The notes under the pieces are model-generated. The model had not been told where the DNA came from and ran no database searches. It saw only the letters and a list, made by a program, of their open reading frames with translations. A DNA stretch of 32,000 bases from Candidatus Hermodarchaeota archaeon (lineage in GTDB: Archaea; Asgardarchaeota; Heimdallarchaeia; Hodarchaeales; Hodarchaeaceae), in contig JBHLKY010000003.1 of the NCBI GenBank assembly GCA_048886185.1, positions 180,595 to 212,594 on the forward strand, read 5' to 3'. Positions 1,156-1,963 of this stretch are shown piece after piece. Numbering within the stretch: the stretch's first letter is position 1; the number at the start of each line of letters is the position of its first letter. Position numbers and translations under genes: made by a program.

Positions 1156-1544
1156 TTATTGTCACTTCCTTATCATAATAGATCATTATTCTCTTTCGAG
1201 AATTACTAGTAAATTCTAACCATATTGTTAGCGTTTTTGCTTTATTCACACAACACATTATTAGTTAGAATTATCTTACTTCCATTTCTAGCATTTTTCA
1301 CAGTAAGTTTATCTGTGTAATGGAATAGATTCTAGCTATCTTGCAGAAAAAACTAGCCCACCTCCTACAAAAAAGCAATAGGGGTTCGTTAATAGCTATG
1401 AGAATTAATCAATAAATATATTTTAACTAGTCCCATGAAGAATACAATTTTATTTAACTTACCAATAAAAAAAATTAAAGGTTTCTTATTACCCTCCTTT
1501 TATTATAAGAGGAATTTGGGGACGGCCGGATTTGAACCGGCGAT

Positions 1545-1574
1545 TTTCGGACATCCTGCGATTAGCAGAGATGA
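1545..1574 (-). other. tRNA-Trp intron 3 (45/46), 30 nt
   Basis: Central helix TCGG/CCGA is perfect, bulges TG|T and AA|A, intron hairpin CATCTCTGC/GCAGGATG. Confidence 0.85.
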
Positions 1575-1582
1575 CACCGAGT

Positions 1583-1645
1583 TTCCTCATTTTTCCAGAA
1601 CTTCATCATGAGTTTCAGTTAACCCAGTGGAGTTCACAGGGGGTT
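1583..1645 (-). ncRNA. tRNA-Trp intron 2 (37/38), 63 nt, box C/D 2'-O-methylation guide RNA
   Basis: D' CTGA (1618-1615), C' ATGATGA (1609-1603), D ATGA (1590-1587), degenerate C CTGTGA (1639-1634). Guide GTTCTGGA pairs with pre-tRNA TCCAGAAC. Guide CACTGGGTT pairs with AACTCGGTG. Confidence 0.85.
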
Positions 1646-1664
1646 CTGGAGCCCGGCGCGATAC

Positions 1665-1696
1665 TTACCCGGTCTTATTAGAAGCTAACAAGACCA
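1665..1696 (-). other. tRNA-Trp intron 1 (D-loop 18/19), 32 nt
   Basis: 11-bp hairpin GGTCTTGTTAG/CTAATAAGACC, relaxed central helix AGCT/GGGT, bulges AG|T and AA|G. Excision restores G18G19. Confidence 0.8.
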
Positions 1697-1963
1697 CTAG
1701 CTTCGCTACGTCCCCAATGAACGCTTAATATATGGTTGTTTTCTAGGATGAGGAAGAAGGAGTTTATTTTTAATAATTTTCGGCCATTAATATAAACATT
1801 GTACCATATGTTAAAAAAATCATTCAACAGAGAGGCGCTTGACAGGATTGTTATTGATCTTGTTCTTAAAAGCAATTAATGATTTATGAAACTTACCTAG
1901 CAGAAAAAGCCTTAAAATTTTGGATACTAGGTTTCTTTGATGATATACAACGAACTACTGATG

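Follow-up and report, generated by a model that had tools for sequence, protein, structure and literature searches.

A tRNA-Trp gene in seven segments and its orthologues

The DNA analysed here is a 32,000-nucleotide (nt) stretch of contig JBHLKY010000003.1 from a Hodarchaeales archaeon, referred to as the window, and the element in question is a tRNA-Trp(CCA) gene on its minus strand that runs through seven segments, from position 1715 down to 1517, and measures 199 nt. An earlier note on this DNA had proposed that the gene yields a 74-nt tRNA-Trp once introns at tRNA positions 18/19, 37/38 and 45/46 are taken out. Our analysis confirms a single tRNA-Trp gene with three introns, and the proposal is borne out by the ARAGORN call, by the orthologues and by compensatory changes among them. 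The whole gene and its segments, with lengths in nt or base pairs (bp), are:

1517 to 1715, minus strand: whole tRNA-Trp(CCA) gene, predicted to splice to a 74-nt tRNA-Trp; the 3′ CCA is not encoded
1697 to 1715, minus strand: exon 1, 19 nt, tRNA positions 1-18, comprising the acceptor 5′ strand, the D-stem 5′ strand and the D-loop to G18
1665 to 1696, minus strand: intron 1, 32 nt, in the D-loop between G18 and G19 (18/19), a hairpin of 6-11 bp (h′) and then a conserved GG tail
1646 to 1664, minus strand: exon 2, 19 nt, positions 19-37, comprising the remaining D-arm, the anticodon-stem 5′ strand and the loop CUCCAG
1583 to 1645, minus strand: intron 2, 63 nt, at the canonical site 37/38, a putative box C/D guide RNA
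1575 to 1582, minus strand: exon 3, an 8-nt micro-exon, positions 38-45, ACUCGGUG, a partner in three alternative helices
1545 to 1574, minus strand: intron 3, 30 nt, variable-loop insert (45/46) consisting, in this order, of a hairpin, a CCGA that pairs with U40-G43, and the AA|A bulge
1517 to 1544, minus strand: exon 4, 28 nt, positions 46-73, comprising the remaining variable loop, the T-arm, the acceptor 3′ strand and discriminator A

When the introns of 32, 63 and 30 nt are removed, ARAGORN calls the 74-nt product as tRNA-Trp(CCA) with a full cloverleaf, consisting of an acceptor stem of 7 bp, a D stem of 4 bp, anticodon and T stems of 5 bp each and a discriminator A. The GC content of this spliced tRNA is 66%, compared with 35% for the whole genome. 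The unspliced 199-nt locus, on the other hand, receives no tRNA call from ARAGORN, nor from Rfam at gathering and lenient thresholds. Comparing the flanks of the orthologues by eye revealed no convincing promoter box at a fixed upstream distance.

We searched 60 related genomes for tRNA-Trp orthologues and found that 19 of the 21 genomes of the same genus carry one, full-length or truncated by a contig end, at 79-92% identity. The 195-201-nt architecture recurs in about 20 independent assemblies, closed chromosomes among them, and the public contigs that match the gene include two records titled chromosomes. In an alignment of the 14 complete orthologues the cloverleaf stems and the hairpins of introns 1 and 3 are 96.9% paired, and this pairing falls to 34-43% when the partners are slid by 1-3 columns. 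Thirteen pairs have changed on both sides, a number reached by 0 of 500 shuffles. All four cloverleaf stems are 100% paired, with acceptor pair 4:69 found as G-C, A-U and C-G, and in the hairpin of intron 1 both sides have changed in 7 of the 10 pairs. The tRNA-Trp structure is thus preserved far more than chance would allow. Pairwise identity amounts to 95.0% for the exons, 92.9% for intron 2, 73.7% for intron 3 and 63.9% for intron 1.

The genome is a draft metagenome-assembled genome (MAG) of 75 contigs, 96% complete and with 4.96% contamination. As the earlier note had pointed out, an intact second tRNA-Trp elsewhere could make the present gene a pseudogene, and four scans of this 96%-complete assembly (the Rfam tRNA model, an acceptor-stem/T-arm scan, ARAGORN with introns and an anticodon-arm scan) gave no other credible CCA tRNA. 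The acceptor-stem/T-arm scan flagged this gene as its sole CCA tRNA, and the anticodon-arm scan of the genome found neither an intronless CCA arm nor any other tRNA-like context. A second tRNA-Trp proposed by ARAGORN in intron mode (C8:183321-183668, with a 255-nt intron) was rejected as a false positive on the grounds of its poor D-arm, its GC content of 39% and its coding-like sequence.

If the locus were a pseudogene or an assembly artefact, the silence of the standard tRNA finders and the fragmented, partly contaminated state of the draft assembly would find a ready explanation. An artefact is, however, difficult to reconcile with an architecture that recurs across independent assemblies and closed chromosomes, or with four DNA runs that hold 96-100% of the sampled words of the locus (these runs may be the source sample). 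Likewise, compensatory changes in every stem and the failure of the scans to find another tRNA-Trp argue against a pseudogene. We regard either possibility as vanishingly improbable, and the locus reads as a functional, apparently single-copy tRNA-Trp(CCA) gene of this Hodarchaeales archaeon.

Partial copies of the gene occur in one of the related genomes, G001, whose contig G001:C16 carries, besides a full tRNA-Trp gene, a 5′ fragment (L020, minus strand, about 1811-1876) ∼110 nt upstream that contains exon 1, intron 1 and exon 2 up to U33. A 3′ fragment (L038, G001:C16:10631-10757), reaching from box C of intron 2 to the 3′ end, lies 22 kilobases (kb) away. We considered whether the two fragments make up a split tRNA-Trp gene and rejected this, as the anticodon is in neither of them and they look like duplication remnants.

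Splice motifs, intron gain and the encoded enzymes

The splice junctions were compared with a bulge-helix-bulge (BHB) geometry of a 4-bp central helix and 3-nt bulges, with the cut after the second bulge base. For intron 3 the central helix is complete (4 of 4 pairs, U40-G43 with CCGA) and accompanied by an inner hairpin, and across the orthologues it is 92.9% paired with two pairs changed on both sides. The motif of intron 2 uses the anticodon stem as its outer helix and has 3 of 4 central pairs, the remaining one being an invariant C34-A mismatch, while its inner helix is almost nil. The motif of intron 1 has a strong inner hairpin and a central helix with 2-3 of 4 pairs, which is 60.7% paired in the orthologues and in which only C16:G and U17:G are conserved. 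Judged by this geometry, the predicted splice motifs are relaxed (HBh′- or hBH-like) and not clean.

An exhaustive scan of all 13,337 possible cut pairs identified 43 that combine a full central helix with an inner helix of at least 3 pairs, and therefore the motif alone does not single out the junctions. On the joint criterion each true cut pair nevertheless ranks among the best 1-6 of the 13,337. The idea that BHB-like motifs predict exactly these junctions is confirmed in part and overstates the case, as the motifs are relaxed and by themselves not unique.

An independent view of the junctions comes from the sister family, whose tRNA-Trp gene (genome G022; L021, L049) is 186 nt long and is also present in a contig of 'archaeon isolate Dive96_bin3.136'. 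This gene has no intron 1, and because its uninterrupted D-loop, AGCCAGGUA, is contiguous, the junction of intron 1 is fixed independently of the motif. It retains a C/D-type intron at 37/38 and an intron at 45/46; as the latter, of 47 nt, is present there, the 45/46 intron is older than the split of the two families. The D-loop intron, genus-specific relative to the sister family, reflects either a gain inside the genus or a loss by the sister family. In two congeners the T-loop of tRNA-Trp contains an additional insert of ∼31-33 nt behind GGUUCAAA (59/60), which brings these genes to four introns (L013:1501-1760 of G005, the same as L045, and L017:1420-1686, minus strand, of G006), and an intron at the same T-loop place is found in the tRNA-Trp of Freyarchaeia.

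In light of the 60.7% pairing of the central helix of intron 1, and of BHB-like motifs that are not unique in the locus, one might suppose that the D-loop insert, the variable-loop insert or both are not EndA introns at the proposed junctions, being cut at other positions, removed by another route or retained in the mature tRNA. Such a view could draw on the many D-arm inserts of Asgard archaea for which no canonical motif is seen and whose boundaries may be inexact (10.64898/2026.10.13.758758). However, no neighbouring cut restores AGCYAGGUA, the D-loop sequence that all orthologues conserve and that G022 has in one piece, and the bases flanking the cuts vary while the exon bases are constant. 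The helix of intron 3 moreover covaries with exon 3, and the high rank of the true junctions among all possible cut pairs points in the same direction. Other junctions or retention of these inserts therefore appear very unlikely to us, and we keep to EndA introns at 18/19 and 45/46 in what follows.

The genome encodes two EndA paralogues on the same contig, C8, at about 46.7-47.3 kb and about 79.6-80.2 kb. One of them is closest to chain B of the PDB entries 3p1z, 3ajv and 2zyz (E-value 3e-41) and the other is closest to 4fz2 and 5x89. We take the first set to be crenarchaeal catalytic subunits and the second to include structural-unit-like sequences, and on this basis the pair would comprise one alpha-like and one beta-like subunit. 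The RtcB ligase and the box C/D ribonucleoprotein (RNP) components L7Ae, Nop5 and fibrillarin are all encoded as well. The genes for fibrillarin and Nop5 are adjacent on the same strand (G000:C8:59474-61007), which is the usual archaeal arrangement. Asgard archaea possess an (alpha-beta)2 EndA with an L1 loop that confers broad specificity, and relaxed motifs of the kind seen here are reported substrates of the two-subunit endonuclease found in Crenarchaeota and Asgard archaea (PMC5829648).

Intron 2 and its two guide sequences

Read from 5′ to 3′, intron 2 is made up of an 8-nt leader, box C, a 12-nt guide, box D′, 5 nt, box C′, a further 12-nt guide, box D and GGAA. Its boxes and guides, with the target base opposite the fifth position upstream of box D′ or D given as N+5, are:

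1631 to 1637, minus strand: box C, GUGAACU, degenerate; its UGA core is invariant in the alignment
1619 to 1630, minus strand: D′ guide CCACUGGGUUAA, 12 nt, pairs with A38-G45 (all of exon 3); N+5 = C39
1615 to 1618, minus strand: box D′, CUGA, canonical; invariant in 13 of 14 rows, with a one-base deletion (CUG-A) in L020
1603 to 1609, minus strand: box C′, AUGAUGA, canonical; invariant
1591 to 1602, minus strand: D guide AGUUCUGGAAAA, 12 nt, pairs with U33-G37 and the first three intron bases; N+5 = C34
1587 to 1590, minus strand: box D, AUGA, degenerate; GA invariant, with ACGA or CAGA in relatives

The GA cores of boxes C and D form the kink-turn of such RNAs. The fifth base upstream of D′ is opposite C39 and the fifth base upstream of D is opposite C34. 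Across the orthologues the 16 guide-target pairs, which form two 8-bp duplexes, are 99.1% paired, compared with 25-50% when the partners are slid; all 8 pairs of the D′ duplex are paired in 14 of 14 sequences, and 98% of the cells of the D duplex are paired. The energy of the D′ guide duplex is –11.9 kcal/mol. The D guide forms 8 bp (–12.8 kcal/mol) on the precursor versus 6 bp (–8.9 kcal/mol) on the spliced loop, and this better fit to the precursor is consistent with action on the precursor, as for Haloferax (PMC4090602).

Covariation further connects the guide to its target. In two sequences the D′ guide pair with position 41 has changed from C41:G to U41:A, and this exon change has counterparts both in the anticodon stem (G29 to A) and in the helix of intron 3 (G to A). 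As the change at position 41 is matched three times, one exon base covaries with three partners. The proposal that this intron is a methylation guide for its own tRNA is upheld by its ordered boxes, by two 12-nt guides placed at C34 and C39, by a covarying guide base and by its identity of 92.9%. Together these features support intron 2 as a candidate double box C/D guide acting on its host tRNA at positions 34 and 39.

It is conceivable that the gene and its three introns are real while intron 2 is a relic with C/D-like motifs that neither assembles an RNP nor guides, and that any Cm34 or Cm39 is the product of a protein-only enzyme. The sequences of box C (GUGAACU) and box D (AUGA, ACGA or CAGA) are indeed off consensus, and the only C/D-family hit that Rfam gave on the locus, sR3 at 11.4 bits with an E-value of 1.8, was not significant. 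Precedents for such a situation can be found in the 65-nt tRNA-Trp intron of Sulfolobus solfataricus, which lacks consensus boxes (PMC3326292), and in H. volcanii, where the tRNA-Trp intron and its methylations are dispensable (PMC4090602). On the other hand, intron 2 is conserved at the level of the exons. Its boxes C′ and D′ are canonical and conserved, both of its spacers are 12 nt long, its N+5 bases fall on the two positions that are targeted in Haloferax, and a guide base tracks a change in its target. In addition, the same design is present in the sister family, where the guide intron of G022 obeys the same N+5 rule for positions 34 and 39, and in Freyarchaeia, despite differing sequences. 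A relic thus seems improbable to us, and intron 2 is treated below as a guide that would direct methylation of C34 and C39.

Processing order and relation to known systems

RNA data that touch the locus come from four metatranscriptome runs, which contain contigs of 151-195 nt that pass through the unspliced gene, are about 88-95% identical to it and stem from relatives. Their ends, at 1517, 1518 or 1523 on one side and 1716 on the other, nearly coincide with those of the gene, which is a weak hint of the transcription of a gene-sized precursor. As only unspliced contigs of relatives were recovered, they are uninformative on splicing or its order.

In the model that we favour, a precursor of about 200 nt would be transcribed, an EndA of the alpha-beta type would remove three protein-spliced introns at 18/19, 37/38 and 45/46, and RtcB would join the exons. 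The 63-nt intron would be bound by L7Ae, Nop5 and fibrillarin as a box C/D small RNA, with the D guide on the anticodon loop directing 2′-O-methylation of C34 and the D′ guide on the 8-nt exon 3 directing methylation of C39, by the same mechanism as in the intron of Haloferax volcanii pre-tRNA-Trp. Several observations weigh against this model. The 96% completeness of the assembly leaves room for a second tRNA-Trp in a gap, the central helices of intron 1 (2-3 of 4 pairs) and intron 2 (3 of 4, with the invariant C-A mismatch) are imperfect, and the terminal C and D boxes are non-consensus with only their GA cores invariant. Furthermore, the covariation of the guide and of the intron-3 helix derives from two related genomes (L019, L020) and represents at most two events, and the metatranscriptome contigs, which are those of relatives and possibly DNA, contain no spliced or circular-intron junctions. 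Weighing these points against the evidence above, we consider it highly probable that the gene is a functional three-intron tRNA-Trp spliced by EndA, with intron 2 guiding the methylation of C34 and C39.

The elements of this model compete for the same bases. G130 and G131 of intron 2 have as partners either C32/U33, in the splice motif, or the CC before box C, in the terminal stem of the C/D RNA, and three partners are available to U40-G43, namely the anticodon-stem 5′ strand, the D′ guide and intron 3. Guide duplexes, splice-site helices and the C/D terminal stem draw on shared bases and exclude one another, so that processing would have to go through several folds. Methylation would probably take place on the precursor, in cis or in trans. 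The motif of intron 3 needs U40-G43 to be free while that of intron 2 needs them in the anticodon stem, so the two would form at different times. An ordered pathway of splicing and methylation, as the earlier note had it, is an inference from such exclusive helices and was stated too strongly there. When position 41 changes, all three helices of exon 3 (anticodon stem, D′ duplex and central helix of intron 3) are kept.

Since the bases of exon 3 sit in three mutually exclusive helices, each kept by compensatory change, the 8-nt exon could act as a timing device, such that methylation of C39 and C34 and the removal of intron 3 would precede the formation of the anticodon stem and the removal of intron 2. 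We put this order forward tentatively, as possible but not probable. In a related scenario, the excised intron would survive as a circular C/D RNA that acts in trans. Should the order hold, the gene would contain a cis-encoded processing programme, and to our knowledge no such programme has been described for any tRNA. Some originality attaches only to the threefold pairing of the 8-nt exon and to the processing order that it would imply.

Interrupted tRNA genes are not confined to this locus. The Rfam tRNA model finds 25 tRNAs in the 96%-complete genome and the acceptor-stem/T-arm scan yields many long candidates, such as C3:179051-179241 (191 nt), C3:54060-54222 (163 nt) and C3:46450-46608 (159 nt), and therefore heavy tRNA interruption seems to be genome-wide in this Hodarchaeales MAG. 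Four further tRNA genes or candidates lie in the window itself:

469 to 573, minus strand: intron-containing tRNA of 105 nt (G000:C3:181063-181167), scoring 49.8 bits when the whole genome was searched; same strand as tRNA-Trp, ∼950 nt downstream of it; missed by the window-wide gathering scan
14643 to 14755, minus strand: tRNA candidate of 113 nt with perfect acceptor and T-arm (G000:C3:195237-195349), adjoining an intronless tRNA-Val(GAC) at 14461-14538; without ARAGORN or Rfam call
21228 to 21353, plus strand: tRNA gene with two introns, a D-loop intron of 37 nt and an anticodon-loop intron of 23 nt
21371 to 21475, plus strand: neighbouring tRNA gene with one canonical intron of 32 nt

Both features that meet in the tRNA-Trp gene are known. 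The tRNA-Trp intron of H. volcanii guides Cm34 and Um39 (Clouet d'Orval 2001, Singh 2004, reviewed in PMC4090602), and C/D RNAs nested in tRNA-Trp introns guide Cm34/Um39 (PMC4090602, PMC3326292) in archaea generally, beyond Haloferax (PMC4090602); what the earlier note gave as established for euryarchaea such as Haloferax applies more widely. As in Haloferax, the guide intron occupies the canonical 37/38 position, has boxes C, D′, C′ and D with guides to positions 34 and 39 of its own tRNA, and its pairing competes with the splice motif. Unlike in Haloferax, it is 63 nt long instead of about 105 nt, position 39 is C instead of U, the terminal C and D boxes are degenerate, and two further introns are present, so that the target of the D′ guide is a free-standing 8-nt exon; methylation in the present gene is a prediction. 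Across archaea, tRNA-Trp introns have a median length of 65 nt (PMC4090602). The 65-nt tRNA-Trp intron of Sulfolobus solfataricus, a stable circle complementary to positions 34 and 39 (PMC3326292), resembles intron 2 in its length and its two target positions, and differs from it in that boxes C′ and D′ are perfect here.

Multi-intron tRNAs with up to three introns each at non-canonical positions are known from Thermoproteales (PMC8450103), which share with the present gene several non-canonical introns, relaxed HBh′ motifs and a two-subunit EndA, which in Thermoproteales is an (alpha-beta)2 enzyme with the L1 loop (PMC8450103, PMC5829648), and belong to another phylum. They are also known in Asgard archaea (PMC11291895; preprint 10.64898/2026.10.13.758758). 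For tRNA-Trp(CCA), Supplementary Data 4 of PMC11291895 gives 3 introns in Atabeyarchaeia-1, 4 in Atabeyarchaeia-2 and 3 in Freyarchaeia, in genes of 206-231 nt whose 3-4 introns include D-arm inserts missed by tRNAscan-SE. The class of the present gene (Heimdallarchaeia, Hodarchaeales) is outside the intron-rich focal families of both Asgard papers, and the main texts of PMC11291895 and the preprint contain none of the C/D- or Trp-related terms looked for, such as Trp and snoRNA.

The earlier note had no precedent for several introns combined with a C/D guide in one gene, or in an Asgard-like genome, but a published Freyarchaeia gene has both. Patterns of the C/D-type tRNA-Trp intron, scanned against 400 Asgard genomes, matched nothing beyond this genus, the sister family and one Freyarchaeia genus; other Heimdallarchaeia families gave no match to these patterns, which are strict, so that this is not evidence of absence. 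The match G116:C1:1426154-1426217 lies inside the listed Freyarchaeia tRNA-Trp gene (1426079-1426291), whose canonical intron has boxes C, D′, C′ and D with 12-nt guides at C34 and C39 and which also carries D-loop and T-loop introns. The third intron is accordingly in the T-loop there, in contrast to 45/46 here. The novelty of the present gene is thus modest, as it provides a Hodarchaeales example of two known features together, a combination that has gone unremarked in published Asgard genomes.

What the gene offers is an essential tRNA gene that is highly fragmented and missed by standard annotation, in Hodarchaeales, the order proposed as sister to eukaryotes. Within it an ancient tRNA-Trp guide intron is held at exon-level conservation while the neighbouring introns come and go. 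It does not represent a new kind of element, and would serve as a compact substrate for studying the order of splicing versus guided methylation.

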